From NCBI GenBank assembly GCA_040380025.1, contig JBEIJY010000001.1, positions 62,245 through 126,244 on the forward strand: DNA of 64,000 nt. Direction: 5' to 3'. This document shows, in pieces, positions 35,685 through 51,161 of the stretch (its first letter is position 1; every line of letters begins with the position of its first letter). The stretch is from Bdellovibrionales bacterium (GTDB taxonomy: Bacteria; Bdellovibrionota; UBA1018; CAIMNF01). The notes under the pieces were generated by a model. That model worked only from the letters and a program-made list of their open reading frames with translations. It was not told the origin of the DNA and did no database searches. The translations under genes were made by a program, and so were the position numbers.

Positions 35685-36656
35685 TTAAAACTCGCCTTTT
35701 TCGAAGATCCAGCTCCAGATCAACTCCTGGTACTCGTCGTTGACCCCGGCCACATCGAAATCGGGGTCATTCTCTTCGATCGCCTTGATCATGAGGTCGG
35801 CGAACGCCTTGCGCTCTTCGAGGCCGCCCAAATGCCGGCTGAAGACCATCTTCACCGCCCGCATGATGCTTCCCGTGTCCGGACCGACCTCGCCCATGTA
35901 CTTGCGGGTGAAGATCGCAAGCTCGGCCATGCGGTCCACGGCGCGGATGCGGTCGCCCCGAAGCCAAAGGTCGATCGCGTCCTTGCATACCGTCCTGACG
36001 GTCGCGACGGCGTTCACGAGGGCCGTGCGTGCAGCAAGCTGGGTCGGCGTGAACTCCCCCATCATCCGGGCGTAAATCTCGTCGAGCTTGAAGTTCTCGG
36101 GGGCGTCGTTCTTCCAGGTCTTTCCTTCGCGGAGCCGGAATGCGGCGGAGGTCGAGATCGATGAAAGCCGGTCCCAGAAGGGGGCGCCGAACTTCAGGAT
36201 TCCGATCATCGTGAGCGGCACCGTGAGCTCGGTGATCCACCCCCAGCCCGAGTCGGCCGGAATCGAGCCCTTCAGCGCGTGGTTCAAGTACGCCGAACCC
36301 GCCATGGCCGACAAGATGAGCCCGTAGCCGCGAACCAGGGTGAAGGTTCGATTCACTGCTTGCCGGCCTTGCAGGACCCGCCCCACCTCGGTGCGCACCA
36401 CGGCCTCGATCTCGGCCCGTTCACAGCCTTCGGGTCGCAGGCACTGATTCAGCACTTTGTTCGAGATGTTTCTGCGCAGGATGCGGATCATGAGGCGATC
36501 GAGCCCGTCCTCGGCCCGGTTCAGCTCGTTCAGAATCTGCTCGGACGCAACAGCCTTCACCTCGGCCCTGGTCAGCAAAAGCCCGCACTCGGATGCCCGA
36601 GCGGAGAACGAGAGCAAAAGAAACAGCAAGACCCCGCTTCGTACCCGATTTCCCAT
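35685..36656 (-). CDS. Secreted or membrane hypothetical protein
   Basis: Signal peptide ending ARA-SECGLLL; central hydrophobic hairpin; SD GGAGG. Confidence 0.75.
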   Translation of the reverse strand: MGNRVRSGVLLFLLLSFSARASECGLLLTRAEVKAVASEQILNELNRAEDGLDRLMIRILRRNISNKVLNQCLRPEGCERAEIEAVVRTEVGRVLQGRQAVNRTFTLVRGYGLILSAMAGSAYLNHALKGSIPADSGWGWITELTVPLTMIGILKFGAPFWDRLSSISTSAAFRLREGKTWKNDAPENFKLDEIYARMMGEFTPTQLAARTALVNAVATVRTVCKDAIDLWLRGDRIRAVDRMAELAIFTRKYMGEVGPDTGSIMRAVKMVFSRHLGGLEERKAFADLMIKAIEENDPDFDVAGVNDEYQELIWSWIFEKGEF

Positions 36657-36750
36657 GATGCCTCCGCGGGCGAGGCTATCAAAAAATCAGGAAATGGGAA
36701 GGGGCGGCAGCCCGGTAAATTCGTTGATCGGAGAAATAGCTGAGCAAAAG

Positions 36751-37686
36751 CTATTGATTTACCGGGCCATATTTGCCAGATTTCAGAAGATTTCGGTAAA
36801 CATCCCTTTGAGACTCGCTCATCCTGAGTCTCATGGGATCCAAGGTGGAATACTTGCTCGAACTCATCAGACGCCCCCCTTCGAAAGTATCAACTGCCTC
36901 GGTGATATTATCGGCGAAATATTCCATTGTTTGCATTTTCCAATTATTCTGATTCAGCTCTCGAAACAATAGAATCACGGATAACGGCTTCTTCTCCAGC
37001 CGATTCCTGATGAAAAGCAGATAGTCCGAAAGAATGGACTCCGTCATGACTTCACAAGATTTCGCGTTTTGATCTTTATAAATACTCGAGAACAACCCAT
37101 GGTCCTCAGCGCAGTCAAAGCGACTGTGGACACCGAACAAACGCGATTGAATCCCGTCAATGAACTCCGAGGACACCTTTTCGAGAGGATCCTCGATCCA
37201 AACCCGGAAGGAGGCTGCAGGCGGTATGAAGATCGTCTCCGGATTCCGTTTTGCGATCGAGTAGGAGCTACTCTCCGCATGCCCCGAGGATCGATCAAGG
37301 ACGCTGTATCCCATCATGAAATTGAAAAAATTCGGATGATCCCGATGATTCACATATTGAACCGTGGAGTTGAAACTACTCCTCCATGTTCTCGAGATCT
37401 CGACTCGCGGATCATTTTCCTTCACGAATACATCGAGCTTTACCCCCTCAAAAACTGCAGAAATCGAGGCCATATTGACTTCAATGACAGCAGAAGTCTT
37501 GTTCCTCATCTCGAGGATCCCACCCGAGAGAGGAACTGGCGTAAATGAAACATCCAATCGAGAATCAGCTTCCCCGGAGCTCCTCCGGACACTGTAATCC
37601 AGATAAACATATCGATTCGGCGAAATCGCACACGCAGAAACCATAAACATCAGTATTCCGCCCAAGATAAAATGATTTTTGATCAT
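36751..37686 (-). CDS. Putative lipoprotein, lower GC than the backbone
   Basis: MIKNHFILGGILMFMVSAC lipobox; AT-richer codons. Confidence 0.7.
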   Translation of the reverse strand: MIKNHFILGGILMFMVSACAISPNRYVYLDYSVRRSSGEADSRLDVSFTPVPLSGGILEMRNKTSAVIEVNMASISAVFEGVKLDVFVKENDPRVEISRTWRSSFNSTVQYVNHRDHPNFFNFMMGYSVLDRSSGHAESSSYSIAKRNPETIFIPPAASFRVWIEDPLEKVSSEFIDGIQSRLFGVHSRFDCAEDHGLFSSIYKDQNAKSCEVMTESILSDYLLFIRNRLEKKPLSVILLFRELNQNNWKMQTMEYFADNITEAVDTFEGGRLMSSSKYSTLDPMRLRMSESQRDVYRNLLKSGKYGPVNQ

Positions 37687-37812
37687 GAGTTGTATTTTAC
37701 AAAACCAGCGGCAACCGGTCAAATAATTCCCGGCAAAGCCGGGGAGGACGACTTCTCCCGGGCCACTTCTTCGCCCGTTTCAATTTGGCTAAGTCGAGCG
37801 AAGTGAGCGAAA

Positions 37813-38040
37813 GAGGCGTATGAATAATACGCCGGACTGAGCGAATCTGATGCGAGACGACCCCAAATTGGATTGGGTGAAGAAGTGGTTGGGGCGCTAG
37901 GATTCATCTCGGCCGTCCCGGCCTCGACCATGCGGACGGCAGTCGCTACCGCTCCCGCCGTGCAAAAATGCCTCCGCTCCTGGCGGAGCTTCCTTGGCAT
38001 TAACGCCCCAACCACTTCTCTCCTGTATCTCCCGGAATCC
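37813..38040. repeat. 228 bp direct repeat, copy 1 (contains tRNA-Gln 3' end in both orientations)
   Basis: Matches 39507..39734 with 5 substitutions counted by eye. Confidence 0.95.
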
Positions 38041-38166
38041 GGGATAGAGCTGTCCTGTGTGTTGAAATCCATTGCGATCCGGTTCGGAGAAACAATCGGT
38101 TGCTGATCCCGGCAGATCAGTTGTGAACTGCGGGAGCGGGGTGGGGGGGCGGTACTCGATTCAACC

Positions 38167-38203
38167 TATGTAAAATTAAAAGCAATGATTTCAATTTTAC
38201 ATA
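38167..38203. promoter_or_regulatory. AT-rich inverted repeat upstream of the AAA_14 gene (operator candidate)
   Basis: TATGTAAAATT-N15-AATTTTACATA, perfect 11 bp arms. Confidence 0.5.
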
Positions 38204-38230
38204 TGTTAAAAAATGGTGCATAGTGGAGAA

Positions 38231-39412
38231 ATGGCTCACACGAGACCCCGCCATCTGAAACCCGTTTTCGAGAAATCCCTTCGTTGGTCCCCTTCGGTGT
38301 CATTGCTGGGAATGAGGCAGGTGGGCAAAACCACCCTGATGAAGGAATTGGTGGATCATTACCAAACCTTCGATGACGACACCCTTGTGTTCAAGGCGAA
38401 TTCCGGGAATTGGTCGTTCGTGGATGCTCCCAAAGGAACTCTTGGTCTGGATGAGTGCCAAAAAGCTCCCTCTGTGTTCGATCGGGTGAAATTGAACATC
38501 GACCAAAGGAAGCGCCCCGGGCAATATGTGCTGAGCGGCTCCGTTCGCTTCCTCTCCAAAAAACAGATTCGCGAATCCCTCTCCGGAAGAACCGACATTC
38601 TCGAACTGTTTCCGATGGGCATTTCGGAATGCCATTCGGGGGAACCGAGCCGGTTCCTGCCCATTGCGCTGAAGCTCGAGGGGCAAGCATTGCTCAATAA
38701 GATCGAGAGCAACGCCCGATACTCGCGGAAACAAGTTGAAGACGGCTTCATTTCGGGCGGATTGCCCGGGATCTGCTTCTTGAGGGATGCCGCAGTCCGA
38801 AATGCGAAATTCAGGATCCAAATCGAGACGCTTTTGAGTCGAGACATCGAAATGATCGCCCCGACCGATGTCGGATATGCAAAATTGAAGGCTCTCGCCA
38901 CCGGGGTTTTGAAGGAGTGCGGATCTCCTGTCAATCATTCCCGCCTCGCGAAGAACTCGGGCCTTTCGGCCCCTACTGTACGGAGACTCCTCGGAGCACT
39001 CGAGGGTCTGTTTTTGATTCGAAGACACGGTCGCTGTTTTTTCGGGACCGATACGGGACTCACCCATTTTCTGGTCAAGGAGTGGGAACCGGACTCCAGG
39101 CCATTCCTGTTGAGCACTGTTTTCATGGAGTTGACCCGTCAGCTTTCTTACAGATATCCCAATCTTCACGAGTTCGATGAATTCCGGAGTCGAGGAGGCA
39201 TCGATGTTCCATTCTTGATACGAGTCCAAGGCCATGCTCCGCTCGCGATTGTTCCGGACATTACGGAAGGCGCCTCGAACAAGTCGCTGATTAGCCTCAC
39301 GTGGTTCAAGAAAAAATTCAAAGACGCGAAGACCATCGTTCTTCACCGGGGAAATCGGGCATATCAAGCCTCGAGCGGTCATCTCTGTTTGCCATACGAG
39401 ATGATCTACTAG
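38231..39412 (+). CDS. AAA_14 ATPase with DUF4143 domain (COG1373-like)
   Basis: GMRQVGKTT, LDECQK, LSGS, ESLSGR, GGLPG, winged-HTH-like segment, C-terminal nuclease-like fold with an atypical motif. Confidence 0.88.
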   Translation: MAHTRPRHLKPVFEKSLRWSPSVSLLGMRQVGKTTLMKELVDHYQTFDDDTLVFKANSGNWSFVDAPKGTLGLDECQKAPSVFDRVKLNIDQRKRPGQYVLSGSVRFLSKKQIRESLSGRTDILELFPMGISECHSGEPSRFLPIALKLEGQALLNKIESNARYSRKQVEDGFISGGLPGICFLRDAAVRNAKFRIQIETLLSRDIEMIAPTDVGYAKLKALATGVLKECGSPVNHSRLAKNSGLSAPTVRRLLGALEGLFLIRRHGRCFFGTDTGLTHFLVKEWEPDSRPFLLSTVFMELTRQLSYRYPNLHEFDEFRSRGGIDVPFLIRVQGHAPLAIVPDITEGASNKSLISLTWFKKKFKDAKTIVLHRGNRAYQASSGHLCLPYEMIY

Positions 39413-39506
39413 GTCGGGACCGAGATCTAGCGAGAAAGGGTTGCCGAATTCTTCAAGACTCTGCCCATTCTTCCGGATCGTATTCGGAATGACAACGGAT
39501 CCGAGG

Positions 39507-39734
39507 GAGGCGTATGAACAATACGCCGGACTGAGCGAATCTGATGCGAGACGACGCCAAATTGGATTGGGTGAAGAAGTGGTTGGGGCGCTAGGATTCA
39601 TCTCGGCCGTCCCGGCCCCGACCCTGCGGGCGGCAGTCGCTACCGCTCCCGCCGTGCAAAAATGCCTCCGCTCCTGGCGGAGCTTCCTTGGCATTAACGC
39701 CCCAACCACTTCTCTCCTGTATCTCCCGGAATCC
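39507..39734. repeat. 228 bp direct repeat, copy 2
   Basis: Matches 37813..38040. Confidence 0.95.
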
Positions 39735-39738
39735 AGAA

Positions 39739-39811
39739 AGACCCGAGCGCTTGAAGCCGGAGAGGTCAGGATGACCGCAGGAGTCCTCCCCTACTTCAAG
39801 CGCTCGGGTCT
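39739..39811. repeat. Palindromic element with perfect 18 bp arms
   Basis: AGACCCGAGCGCTTGAAG...CTTCAAGCGCTCGGGTCT enclosing GGTCAGGATGACC. Confidence 0.85.
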
Positions 39812-39840
39812 GTTTGAAAAATGGAAATAAAGGAAAGAAG

Positions 39841-39915
39841 TGGTTGGGGCGCTAGGATTCGAACCTAGGAATGGCGGAATCAAAATCCGCTAGCTTACCA
39901 CTTGCCGACGCCCCA
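39841..39915 (-). tRNA. tRNA-Gln (TTG)
   Basis: TGGGGCG acceptor stem, GCGGA-TTTTGAT-TCCGC anticodon arm, GGTTCGAATCC T-arm, encoded CCA. Confidence 0.97.
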
Positions 39916-40018
39916 ACAGAGTTATGAAGCTTAGCGGATGAAAGAGGGATAACACAGGCACGGGGACAGCGCAAGGCAACAGTCCGCAGGATTGCGGAAT
40001 CAAAAGAAGAAAAGCGAA

Positions 40019-40336
40019 CTACTCGTGACTGGCGAGCTCCTGAAGACCGTCGTCTTCGGGCAAACCGGAATGCCCCGAACCGCGCTTGATCTCAGTAAGA
40101 TACGCCTCGAGGATTTTTTTCTCCATCGTCATCCGGGTCGCTTTGTTCAGCGGATGGGCCACGTCCTTGTATGATCCGTCCGATCGTTTTTTGCTGGGCA
40201 TGGCGACAAAAAGGCCGGTTGCGCCGTTGATGATCTTGAGATCGCGAACCACGAAACATCCGTCGAGCACGATCGTCACATAGGCCTTCAGCTTTTCTTC
40301 GCTGACAGGAAAAACTTTGACTTCAGTGATTTCCAT
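40019..40336 (-). CDS. spoVG: SpoVG family nucleic-acid-binding protein
   Basis: MEITEVKV...LKAYVTI..D.CFVVRDLKII.G..GLFVAMPSKK..DG.YKDVAHP. Confidence 0.95.
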   Translation of the reverse strand: MEITEVKVFPVSEEKLKAYVTIVLDGCFVVRDLKIINGATGLFVAMPSKKRSDGSYKDVAHPLNKATRMTMEKKILEAYLTEIKRGSGHSGLPEDDGLQELASHE

Positions 40337-41882
40337 TGCATTTCTCCCCCCGCCCAAACCTTGTAAGATTGACCTAACAACCGGCAAGACCTGTCTTCTA
40401 TTATTTTACGGAACAAGTCCGGGATATGCAAATTTACTTCTTGACGAGGAAGTTGCCTTGACCCTCTTGCCAAGGAAGGTGCATTCTGATCTCAATGAAA
40501 GAAATCGACATTTTTCTGGCGCAAATTGCAAGCTTTCTGAATCCTGCGCAAATCCTGCTCGATCCCGAATCGTGCGCCTTCCACGCCCAAGACTGGAGCA
40601 AGATCCTCAAGCCAAACACAAGCGCGGTCGTGTTCCCCGAATCAACACAGGAAGTATCCCGCATTCTCGCGCTCGCCCACTCGCTCGGGGTGCCGATCGT
40701 GCCCTCTGGGGGGCGCACGGGGCTTTCGGGCGGAGCCGTGGCGACGAACGGCGAGGTCGTGCTCTCGCTCCTGCGGATGAACAAAATCGGCGCGCTTCAC
40801 AAGGGCGCCCTCTCGCTCCAGGTCGAGGCAGGAGCGATCACCGAGTCGGTGCATCTTCACTGCGCGCCCTACGGGCTCACCTGGCCTGTCGATTTTGCAT
40901 CGAAGGGCTCGTCGACGATCGGGGGGAATCTCGCCACGAATGCGGGCGGGGTCCGGGTGATCCGCTACGGAAACGCCCGGAACTGGGTACTCGGAATGAC
41001 GGTGGTTACAATGGACGGAACGGTTCATTCCTTCAATTCGGAACTCGAAAAGAACAATACCGGGTATGATTTCAGGCAGCTTCTGGCCGGAAGCGAGGGA
41101 ACACTCGGGGTGATCACCGAAGCAACTCTCAAGCTCTGCCCTCTGCCCGGGCAAACCCTGGTGGCGATGGTTCCGCTTGCGAGTTTTTCGAAGCTTCTCG
41201 AGCTGTTCGCGTTTGTCCGAAACCGATTCCCCGCTCTAAGCGCCTTTGAGTGCCTCGATGCGGCCTCGATGAAGGCGGTGCTTGAGCACTTCTCGCTCCC
41301 CCTCCCCGTTCAAACCGGGGGGAAAGTTTATGCTCTCCTCGAGATCGAAAATACCGAATGGAATGCCGCCGAGCCGGCACTGATGGAAATCCTCGCCGAA
41401 GGAATCGCTCCCGATGCGATCCTGGCCCGCACCGAAAAAGAGGCGCGGGCCCTTTGGCGGTATCGCGAAGGTGTGGCCGAGAGCATCTTGCATGGGCATG
41501 AGGTCCACCAAGAGGACGTGTCGGTCCCGGTGTCGAGGCTTCAAGAATTTTACAGCGAAATCGAAGCCCGCTACGCGCAGATGCTTCCCGGATTCCGTGT
41601 GTTCTTTTTCGGGCACATCGGAGACGGGAACCTGCACATCTTCATCCAAAAGCCGAAAGAACTCGACTCGAAGACCTTTCGGGCCCGCGCGCATGAGGCC
41701 GATCAGGGACTCTTCGAGATTCTTCGTTCCTTGGGCGGATCGGTCTCGGCGGAACACGGCATCGGGCTCCTGAAGAAGCACGCGCTTCCGTTCTCGCGCT
41801 CGCTTGCCGAGATCGAACTCATGCGCGGAGTGAAGAAGGTCTTCGACCCGAAGGGGCTTCTGAACCCGGGCAAGATCTTCGA

Positions 41883-50826: not shown

Positions 50827-50916
50827 GGAGAGATGGGTGAGTGGTCGAAACCACACCCTTGCTAAGGGTGCAGGGAGTAACATCCCTCGAGAGTTCGAAT
50901 CTCTCTCTCTCCGCCA
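50827..50916 (+). tRNA. tRNA-Ser (GCT)
   Basis: GGAGAGA acceptor, CACCC-TTGCTAA-GGGTG anticodon arm, long variable arm, GTTCGAATC, GCCA end. Confidence 0.97.
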
Positions 50917-50920
50917 TTTT

Positions 50921-50962
50921 AAAAAAAGCCGGTGAGCCCGCAAGGGTTCAACGGCTTTTTTT
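50921..50962 (+). terminator. Intrinsic terminator after tRNA-Ser
   Basis: A7-GCCGGTGAGCCC-GCAA-GGGTTCAACGGC-T-tract. Confidence 0.8.
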
Positions 50963-50972
50963 ATTTTGCACA

Positions 50973-51123
50973 GCGGGGAGAGAGAGATTCGAAGCGAGCA
51001 GACCGGCCTGCGGTGCAGGCTGAGCGAGCGTGATGCGAGCGAAAGGTCTGCGAGGTGGCCAGGCGGAGGAGCGGCCGGATGGCGCGACGAGCGCTTGGCC
51101 GAATCTCTCTCTCTCCGCCATTT
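50973..51123 (+). repeat. Inverted-repeat element derived from the tRNA-Ser 3' end
   Basis: Inverted copy at 50973..50993 and direct 24 bp copy at 51100..51123 of 50896..50919. Confidence 0.9.
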
Positions 51124-51161
51124 AAAAAAGGCTTCCGGGCATTTCCCCGGAGGCCTTTTTT
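51124..51161 (+). terminator. Bidirectional-looking terminator after the duplicated tRNA end
   Basis: A6-GGCTTCCGGG-catttc-CCCGGAGGCC-T6. Confidence 0.8.

Follow-up and report, generated by a model that had tools for sequence, protein, structure and literature searches.

A four-hairpin element within displaced tRNA 3′-end copies flanks an ATPase gene downstream of tRNA-Gln in a Bdellovibrionales bacterium

In the genome of a Bdellovibrionales bacterium (GenBank assembly GCA_040380025.1), two nearly identical direct repeats downstream of a tRNA-Gln gene flank a segment with a single ATPase gene, and each repeat carries one tRNA-tail module, i.e., a partial copy of the tRNA-Gln 3′ end with a four-hairpin element of about 100 nt at the T-loop position. 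The stretch analyzed, referred to as the window, comprises 64,000 nt (contig JBEIJY010000001.1, positions 62,245 to 126,244, forward strand). The same element was found beside other tRNA genes and the transfer-messenger RNA (tmRNA) gene, and at the starts of protein-coding genes. The reading favoured here, with a probability put slightly short of even, is that of a small strand-specific, hairpin-ended, non-autonomous insertion element with an anatomy like that of IS200/IS605 miniatures, served by a putative enzyme, the copies of which are recombination substrates. As judged from Rfam 15 and the open-access literature, the element family is apparently widespread and undescribed.

The tRNA-Gln locus

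The intact tRNA-Gln(ttg) gene, with its encoded CCA, was located at 39841..39915 on the reverse strand (ARAGORN; Rfam RF00005, 59.6 bits). The two copies of the direct repeat (family D1, 233 nt, 97% identity) were found at 37808..38040 (copy 1, distal) and 39502..39734 (copy 2, tRNA-proximal). An earlier note, made from the letters of this stretch, had described them as 228-nt repeats with five substitutions which bracket one AAA_14/DUF4143 ATPase gene; this was confirmed for the span 37813–38040/39507–39734, and the repeat extends to 233 nt with seven mismatches. In agreement with the same note, a repeat search gave 26 nt of the tRNA-Gln 3′ end in three exact copies, starting at 37880, 39574 and 39835, which run from about position 57 in the T-loop to the CCA plus 6 nt of flank. 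The two displaced copies (family D2), both on the reverse strand, occupy 37880..37905 (distal) and 39574..39599 (100% identity), the latter being joined to the 3′ end of the core of copy 2.

The other end of each module is formed by a 5′ arm, at 38001..38019 in copy 1 (inverted repeat I8) and at 39695..39713 in copy 2 (inverted repeat I10), both on the reverse strand. The arm, which pairs with the tRNA-tail copy, is composed of the acceptor 5′ strand and of sequence complementary to the CCA and flank. The 19-nt arms are 95% complementary to 37881–37899 and 39575–39593, respectively, with 101 nt between, and folding gives a closing stem of about 20 bp. The inverted copy of the tRNA end, previously given as 16 nt, was therefore present in a slightly longer form. 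Terminal inverted repeats made of tRNA sequence, also claimed earlier, hold for the window and are not general, most copies having the T-stem 5′ strand and TTC(G)A in this place.

The approximately 100 nt between the arms represent a conserved module of four hairpins (P1–P4) folded on the tRNA-sense strand. The core was located on the reverse strand at 37902..37999 in copy 1 (80.2 bits with the covariance model R1) and at 39596..39693 in copy 2 (86.2 bits, E 8.5e-17). The two cores differ at three positions (37924, 37930 and 37936), two of which lie in P3 and weaken it. The calculated folding energy of the element was −81.5 kcal/mol (z = −7.2 against shuffles), and the fold, as modelled, is not due to chance. 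Within the source genome (2.35 Mb, 53 contigs) the four-hairpin element is confined to this locus.

Two palindromes adjoin the modules. Palindrome H1 (39734..39816; inverted repeat I3, 32-nt arms, 84% complementary) lies between the tRNA gene and module copy 2, and the loop of its apical hairpin (39764–39776) reads ATCCT on the tRNA-sense strand. Palindrome H2 (37763..37888; inverted repeat I5, 26-nt arms) is complete, with its start at the distal tail copy's CCA; repeat copy 1 includes the apex of H2 and the arm nearer the tail (37808–37879), which recur at 39502–39573. Palindromes of the H2 type stand directly after tRNA-Gln in relatives (L005, L007, L012 and L022) and also after tRNA-Leu(tag) in the same genome.

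Large palindromes which start right at the CCA of tRNAs and tRNA-tail copies were seen in the window and at loci L006, L011 and L021. At these three loci and in H1 the apical loops, ATCCT or ATCCA on the tRNA-sense strand, are reverse-complementary to the loops of P1 and P4, which are of the CAGGAT type, and the apical loop of H2 differs (TATTC/TGTTC). Both in the window and in genome G024, the ends of the duplication are close to the apex of a palindrome of this kind.

Fold, distribution and position of the element

Partial matches to the core in relatives were always found downstream of a tRNA or tmRNA gene and in reverse orientation to the query, the arrangement seen in the window. Alignment of 11 copies with MAFFT, followed by RNAalifold, gave 27 base pairs, 20 of them with compensatory changes. 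The covariance model R1 (88 model positions, four hairpins) gave 71 matches, 65 of them distinct. In these 65 copies 94.0% of the cells were paired, as compared with 66.8% in shuffles (none of 500 reached 94.0%), double changes were seen in all 27 pairs, and controls with slid partners gave a pairing of at most 49.6%. The 65-copy alignment was fitted to R1, which favours pairing; the 11-sequence MAFFT alignment gave a like picture. On the tRNA-sense strand 47 G–U/U–G combinations were counted versus 12 A–C/C–A, and the sense strand folds at −81.5 versus −70.6 kcal/mol for the antisense strand, which points to the tRNA-sense strand as the folded one, either as RNA or as single-stranded DNA. The loops of P1 and P4 are alike, and tandem G–A motifs are present on the sense strand of the core.

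A search of Rfam 15 with the window region 36000–41500 (E ≤ 1) and six other loci (E ≤ 0.5) gave no match to the element and matches to tRNA only, apart from one chance-level row (a plant miRNA family, E 0.88) which falls in palindrome H1 and not in the element. A known RNA family was rejected on these grounds. Binding of CsrA, a protein encoded in 5/5 genomes, was considered and dropped, since the loop GGA is not invariant and is replaced by UGA or CGA in some copies.

The genome counts obtained with R1 are lower bounds, scoring having covered part of the first-look candidates. The element was present in at least 13 of the 19 genomes of the family, with up to six copies per genome, in at least 33 of the 116 genomes of the order (8/12 families), and in at least 16 of the 151 genomes of a phylum-wide sample. 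From metagenome contigs, a loose pattern scan yielded 80 loci, with 56 matches to R1 (54 unique). When the repeat was compared by blastn with phage and plasmid collections no match was found, nor did the core of the subfamily at modification–restriction (mod–res) genes described below match plasmids; a pattern scan of viral contigs gave two pattern matches, neither of which matched R1. A phage or plasmid origin was rejected on the blastn results and the R1-checked scan. In the open-access literature (mostly abstracts, supplements excluded) no account of a structured insert in T-loop copies of tRNA was found.

Among the 66 unique copies in fetched loci, 40 had a tRNA or tmRNA gene upstream on the same strand, in 37 cases within 700 nt; about 0.6% would be expected within 700 nt by chance (40 tRNAs in 2.35 Mb). 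The linked genes are those for tRNA-Gln, Arg, Glu, Met, Ser (four), Pro (three), Val, Leu and Phe, together with tmRNA. The search proposed in the earlier note, for the core beside other tRNAs in relatives, accordingly gave a positive answer, with flanks matching the local tRNA. The 3′ end of the core always leads into the remainder of the local T-loop, the T-stem 3′ strand, the acceptor 3′ strand and the CCA. The 5′ flank is usually the local T-stem 5′ strand followed by TTC(G)A, GTTC standing directly upstream in 41/66 copies, and the core thus lies inside a T-arm. Both T-arm halves were present in 22 of the 40 tRNA-linked copies, in which the T-loop pieces (TTCGA + GAAT, or TTCA + AAAT) sum to 7–10 nt.

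These flanks define the ends of the element, which starts with CAA... right after TTCGA or TTCA and finishes with ...NTGA right before (A)AT. Excision of the unit CAA...NTGA in silico restores a perfect 7-nt T-loop, and tandem units abut head to tail (...ATGA|CAAA...). Often the tRNA copy is decayed in its acceptor part while the T-stem is kept, and many copies precede a terminator-like hairpin. In the source genome, all six partial tRNA 3′-end copies found carry a structured module; five of them are direct copies, at four tRNAs, and one, at tRNA-Arg(acg), is inverted.

Copies away from tRNA genes were found as well; in genome G094, five of nine had no tRNA within 9 kb, and in a single-contig genome of the phylum-wide sample both copies form part of a larger conserved unit. 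A subfamily from metagenomes sits exactly at gene starts and supplies the start codon. At three loci (L148, L181 and L166) two tandem units lie between the stop codon of mod and the ATG of a type III res gene; at L189, in the same position, the first unit is a 37-nt remnant. The res frame is complete or long at all four loci. Single units precede alaS, encoding AlaRS, and an OprB porin gene. The Res, AlaRS and OprB frames begin at the terminal ATG or GTG of the unit, with a GGAGG-like P4 loop 7–9 nt before it. Eight of the 22 non-tRNA copies examined start an open reading frame (ORF) of at least 100 amino acids (aa) at the terminal codon; a ninth, at L176, starts at the unit's terminal ATG a Res-like frame of 70 aa which runs off the contig. 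The unit regenerates ATGA, so that insertion after ATGA would be harmless. The tandem mod–res units may be a translational control element for res.

The arrangement module–cargo–module was observed in five genomes. In the genome of the window (G000), flanks of 233 nt (97% identity) surround the ATPase gene. In G024, flanks of 176 nt (100%, spaced by 930 bp) surround a 0.75-kb pair of small ORFs, which in our reading of the sequence are RelE/HigA-like and may form a toxin–antitoxin-like pair. The flanks in G018 (96 and 90 nt, 96%) enclose an HTH_37 pair and a 290-aa ORF, those in G013 (45 nt, 87%, at tmRNA) enclose genes for Fic, HxlR and oxidoreductases, and those in G009 (67 nt, 87%) enclose a partial serine-recombinase domain, ORF6N and GNAT. 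No integrase was found at any of the five loci. A further genome, G016, contained a 3-kb block between tRNA-Met and the old terminator, with its own 7-nt repeat and with an older module pushed away, from which it follows that cargo beside a module is not always module-borne.

Islets were seen at the very 3′ end of tRNA-Met in three genomes (L063 in G016, L109 in G012 and L110 in G006). They share an end motif about 150–200 nt after the tRNA, and the far side of the islet in G016 is marked by the 7-nt repeat GCAACCA. This looks like a separate classical att system at the same tRNA.

Insertion element, structured RNA or cassette site

An insertion element would account best for five features: ends that are defined, a T-loop that is restored, units stacked head to tail, sites at start codons and a single-strand fold. 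The element would move as a folded single strand and insert 3′ of a short motif. An insertion that hit a working tRNA gene would be lethal, and the surviving copies would hence be those in surplus partial tRNA copies just downstream of the intact gene. As for the window, the module and 73 nt of the adjoining palindrome would have been duplicated recently (98% identity), so that a foreign ATPase segment of 1.46 kb now has one copy on either side. Most probably this would have come about by recombination between module copies, through either integration of a circle of cargo plus module or unequal exchange. Modules may generally act as landing or recombination sites for small cargo, as is suggested by the module–cargo–module arrangement in four other genomes.

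The nearest comparison is with the IS200/IS605 family, whose members are strand-specific, have subterminal hairpins, no terminal inverted repeats and no target duplication, insert 3′ of a fixed motif of 4–5 nt, and leave and enter DNA in single-stranded form with a bias to the lagging-strand template. Like miniatures of this family (palindrome-associated transposable elements), the element is strand-specific, has subterminal hairpins with similar loops (P1 and P4), and lacks terminal inverted repeats and a clear target duplication. It also stands directly 3′ of a short motif (TCGA, TTCA or ATGA, which are similar but not one motif), its end NTGA resembles the target, and tandem insertion occurs. 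Unlike them, it has no associated Y1 transposase, TnpB is absent, it contains two further conserved internal hairpins, it measures only about 80–100 nt, it targets a hairpin loop (the T-loop), and it shows no recent copies.

Several observations weigh against this reading. Near-identical copies were not found across loci of one genome; the best cross-locus pairs are about 83% identical, so that recent jumping is not indicated. Where sister species carry a copy at the same tRNA, the stems have diverged by changes that are fully compensated, and the mod–res cores appear by eye, uncomputed, about 85% alike, with Res proteins (N-termini) that seem far less alike; compensated divergence and conservation before res suggest selection at the locus, which is more in keeping with a functional RNA than with a dead insertion. 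The exact cut position is ambiguous by 1–2 nt. The window copies have no T-stem 5′ strand and carry the acceptor-complement arm instead. In G011 and G008 the native terminator stands between tRNA and module, which speaks against a mere exchange of the tRNA 3′ end. The idea that the element carries a replacement tail was itself weakened by the resemblance of the G011 terminator to the native one of the element-free G008 site.

The search for an enzyme counts on the same side. None of the seven protein families tested tracks the element. Y1_Tnp was found in 19/33 genomes with the element versus 60/83 without it (79/116 genomes of the order). In a set of five genomes, serine recombinases occurred in two, reverse transcriptase in two, IS110 in one and TnpB in none. 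Tyrosine recombinases are universal among the genomes examined; G016 (98% completeness) carries modules, yet only two such recombinases, both Xer-sized, and G012 has ten and no element. That no integrase or transposase lies in cis, as the earlier note had stated, was upheld for recombinases: the ORFs around the array hold none (Pfam), and PF00589 gave four matches in the source genome, on contigs C27, C2, C35 and C31 and none on the contig of the window (C1), two of them being integrases of about 405 aa. In the same genome PF00239, PF00078, PF07282 and PF01548 gave no match, DDE transposase families being outside the search.

The source genome has one Y1_Tnp-like ORF (200 aa, 27.5 bits, single copy, C13:34583–35185), the HUH motif of which is degenerate in our reading, and a palindrome of about 100 nt with perfect arms follows it directly (C13:35187–35295). 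No homologue of this ORF was found near any fetched element locus. Y1-like genes of about 180–250 aa are numerous in the order, with up to 21 per genome. A guide-RNA role, with a TnpB-like scaffold and a tRNA guide, was dropped because no TnpB was found and the intact tRNA would itself become a target.

A functional structured RNA is the possible alternative that fares best, although we consider it more probably wrong than right by a good measure. The module would be co-transcribed with the tRNA, transcribed behind it, or form a 5′ leader of genes, and would act in cis or in trans, the tRNA pieces being relics of its origin; examples would be translation control through the GGA/GGAGG loop of P4 at 7–9 nt before the AUG, or a processed stable RNA closed by the T-stem. 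The strong covariation, the G–U pairs and the tandem G–A motifs of the sense strand speak for it, as do the compensated changes in sister species and the mod–res cores, which look more conserved by eye than the res genes, a comparison that was not computed. The Shine–Dalgarno-like P4 loop just before the start codons of Res, AlaRS and OprB, the terminator-like hairpin after many copies, and the retention of the T-stem while the acceptor part decays also agree with it. It is opposed by the lack of a promoter for the module and of any Rfam match, hence of any known class, by the variation of the loop GGA, and by sub-hairpins with complementary loops on the same strand in the adjoining palindromes. 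The loops are also GNA triloops (CCCGNAGGG), which are typical of stable DNA mini-hairpins. Moreover, an RNA role alone leaves unexplained the precise splitting of the T-loop, the tandem abutment and the repeated origin at more than ten different tRNAs.

The insertion-element and functional-RNA readings are compatible and not exclusive. A bolder proposal, which is speculative and in our estimate doubtful, would join them in a new class of strand-specific elements of about 80–100 nt, outside the known transposase families, which home to hairpin loops and start codons and above all to the universally conserved T-loop of tRNA and tmRNA. Such an element would leave a T-stem-closed four-hairpin fold kept by selection, perhaps as a ribosome-binding leader or a tRNA-trailer RNA, and perhaps doubling as a folded recombination site at which small defence or toxin–antitoxin cassettes gather beside tRNAs: a tRNA-anchored counterpart of the integron without an integrase of its own.

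Genomic islands classically land in tRNA genes, for which the accepted cause is an integrase making a copy of the tRNA 3′ end. In the present case the displaced tails regularly bear a conserved, covarying structured insert, common to more than ten tRNA targets and found also at gene starts. If mobile, the element would represent an unrecognised way of targeting the T-loop, which is among the most conserved short sequences in biology, and could indicate an insertion chemistry on single strands that is compact and possibly programmable. If an RNA, it would be a widespread new structured motif that provides restriction-enzyme and housekeeping genes with a ribosome-binding site and a start codon. 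Under either reading it gives concrete access to the question of how small islets without an integrase arise beside tRNAs.

The earlier note had proposed an integron-like cassette site. In this rather unlikely reading the repeats would be the attachment site of an integrase-free cassette system, in which a recombinase acting in trans adds or removes small circular cassettes at the tRNA T-loop by means of the folded module and the tRNA tail, in the manner of attC or a folded phage attP. Among the parts of the proposal that stood is the strand-specific fold, conserved in structure rather than in sequence, together with cargo bracketed by two copies in four genomes besides that of the window, the flanks being 97–100% identical in two of the five. 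The tRNA 3′ end repeated from the T-loop on, the cassette-typical cargo (a toxin–antitoxin-like pair, Fic, GNAT, an ATPase) and the tandem arrays agree with it. Among those that did not stand is the attC layout. Integron attC sites have boxes RYYYAAC ... GTTRRRY, whereas the arms in the window read GTTGGGG ... CCCCAAC, the opposite box order.

As in attC arrays, the fold of one strand and not the sequence is conserved, and it borders small, often single-gene and promoter-poor cargo. Unlike in integrons, where cassettes share one orientation and every ORF has its own attC behind it, IntI, attI and Pc are absent, one bulged hairpin is replaced by four together with a closing stem, the ATPase gene lies on the strand opposite to module and tRNA, gene orientation is mixed, and arrays are anchored at tRNA genes. 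Near-identical flanking modules (97–100%) resemble a duplication more than cassettes each bringing its own site. Further points against a cassette system are the lack of a cis integrase at the loci read, the restriction of G016 to two Xer-sized recombinases, the different 7-nt repeat used by the G016 cargo, and the gene-start copies with no tRNA nearby; besides, an element moving to a new tRNA would make a chimeric tRNA.

With the att sites of tyrosine integrases the modules share the direct repeat of the tRNA 3′ end from the T-loop, here and at other tRNAs. The distal T-loop, however, is split by a core of 80–100 nt, whereas a core site would be contiguous, with a stem-like arm, a 7-nt overlap and a second stem arm. 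Similarly, tRNA-targeting, cis-mobilizable and tycheposon-shaped islands have partial tRNA 3′ ends downstream of a tRNA with foreign low-GC cargo between. For tycheposon-shaped islands, integrase-less remnants and serial insertions are described (10.1101/2020.12.28.424599). Such islands show a plain direct repeat, whereas here a structured insert is common to ten or more tRNA targets, with no integrase at the loci read, and the hallmark tyrosine recombinase of tycheposons is not present at these loci.

REP elements are hairpins of 20–40 nt with a conserved GTAG head and a linked single-copy RAYT gene. Like REP/BIME (REPIN) sequences, the copies are short intergenic hairpin repeats in both orientations, long-lived and often at gene ends; unlike them, the element is larger, has several hairpins and no conserved GTAG head, and the RAYT-like Y1 genes, common in the order, are unlinked to it.

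Finally, a tandem duplication beside the tRNA made by chance or by assembly is very improbable: the assembly has 53 contigs and no single public contig bridges the repeat, but five substitutions separate the copies, the repeat contig has about double depth, and a like architecture occurs in dozens of independent genomes and metagenomes. The depth comes from a sequencing run (X1), the public contigs of which end at the repeat edges; its 215-nt repeat contig has a depth of 44, as compared with 24–29 for the neighbours, although this run is possibly the source sample itself and the figure is not independent. The depth fits two real copies and lends weak support to the view that the repeat is not obviously an assembly artefact. 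The X1 contigs show no joints for a circle or a deletion, such contigs being unable to show the absence of either. An exact 31-nt pattern of this locus, sought in metagenome contigs for strain comparison, gave no match.

Cargo and neighbouring features

The unique segment between the repeats (38041..39501, 1,461 bp) has a GC content of 0.52. Its only gene, at 38213..39412 on the forward strand and hence antisense to the tRNA and the modules, encodes a 399-aa ATPase with AAA_14, HTH and DUF4143 regions (Pfam; AAA_14 at 1e-19, DUF4143 at 1e-3, below the cut-off). Homologues occur in 51 of the 116 genomes of the order, often many per genome, and the closest relatives within the order (45–47% identity) belong to another family. 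The four-hairpin core was absent from all 11 homologue loci fetched, one of which had a tRNA. A role of the ATPase as part of the system was rejected on this lack of linkage (0/11 loci), and as far as its sequence context tells, the gene is cargo only.

In many genomes of the order, genes of the AAA_14/DUF4143 type are present in high multiplicity (10–16 or more scored matches in several), and several copies hold in-frame stops. The multiplicity and the stops suggest a selfish or defence-linked gene family.

The array is adjoined by a lipoprotein-like gene (36751..37686, reverse strand, GC 0.464), the lipobox of which was read from the sequence by eye, with no tool behind it, and for which Pfam gave no family. 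The GC content is 0.46–0.52 across 36.7–39.5 kb, as compared with 0.576 for the window. The suggestion made earlier that this gene might be an older cassette was not borne out, no further module or tRNA fragment being found to its left. Upstream of the ATPase gene, an X1 contig shows one extra G after 38142 in the intergenic G-run 38136–38148 (depth 24.3/24.3), for which either strain variation or an assembly error in homopolymer length may be the cause.

Elsewhere in the genome, contig C31 starts (C31:1–1650) with an excisionase-like ORF and an integrase of 404 aa; behind them come a tRNA-like 3′ fragment, which ends in CCA and has no structured insert, and a terminator. Judged by this gene order, the region is a classical integrative element.

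A second module type, designated B, was seen in the window at 50917–51130, downstream of tRNA-Ser(gct) (50827–50916, forward strand). The order is tRNA, terminator hairpin, complement of the tRNA acceptor, T-stem and T-loop, core, and a direct copy of the tRNA 3′ end. The core is a different multi-hairpin structure with GCGAGC...GCGAGC motifs, the tRNA 3′-end copy leaves GCCA unpaired, and the calculated fold has −84.9 kcal/mol (z −6.5). In the same genome, modules similar to type B lie behind tRNA-Arg(acg) on contig C26, and tRNA-Leu(tag) and tRNA-Glu have modules of other types downstream.

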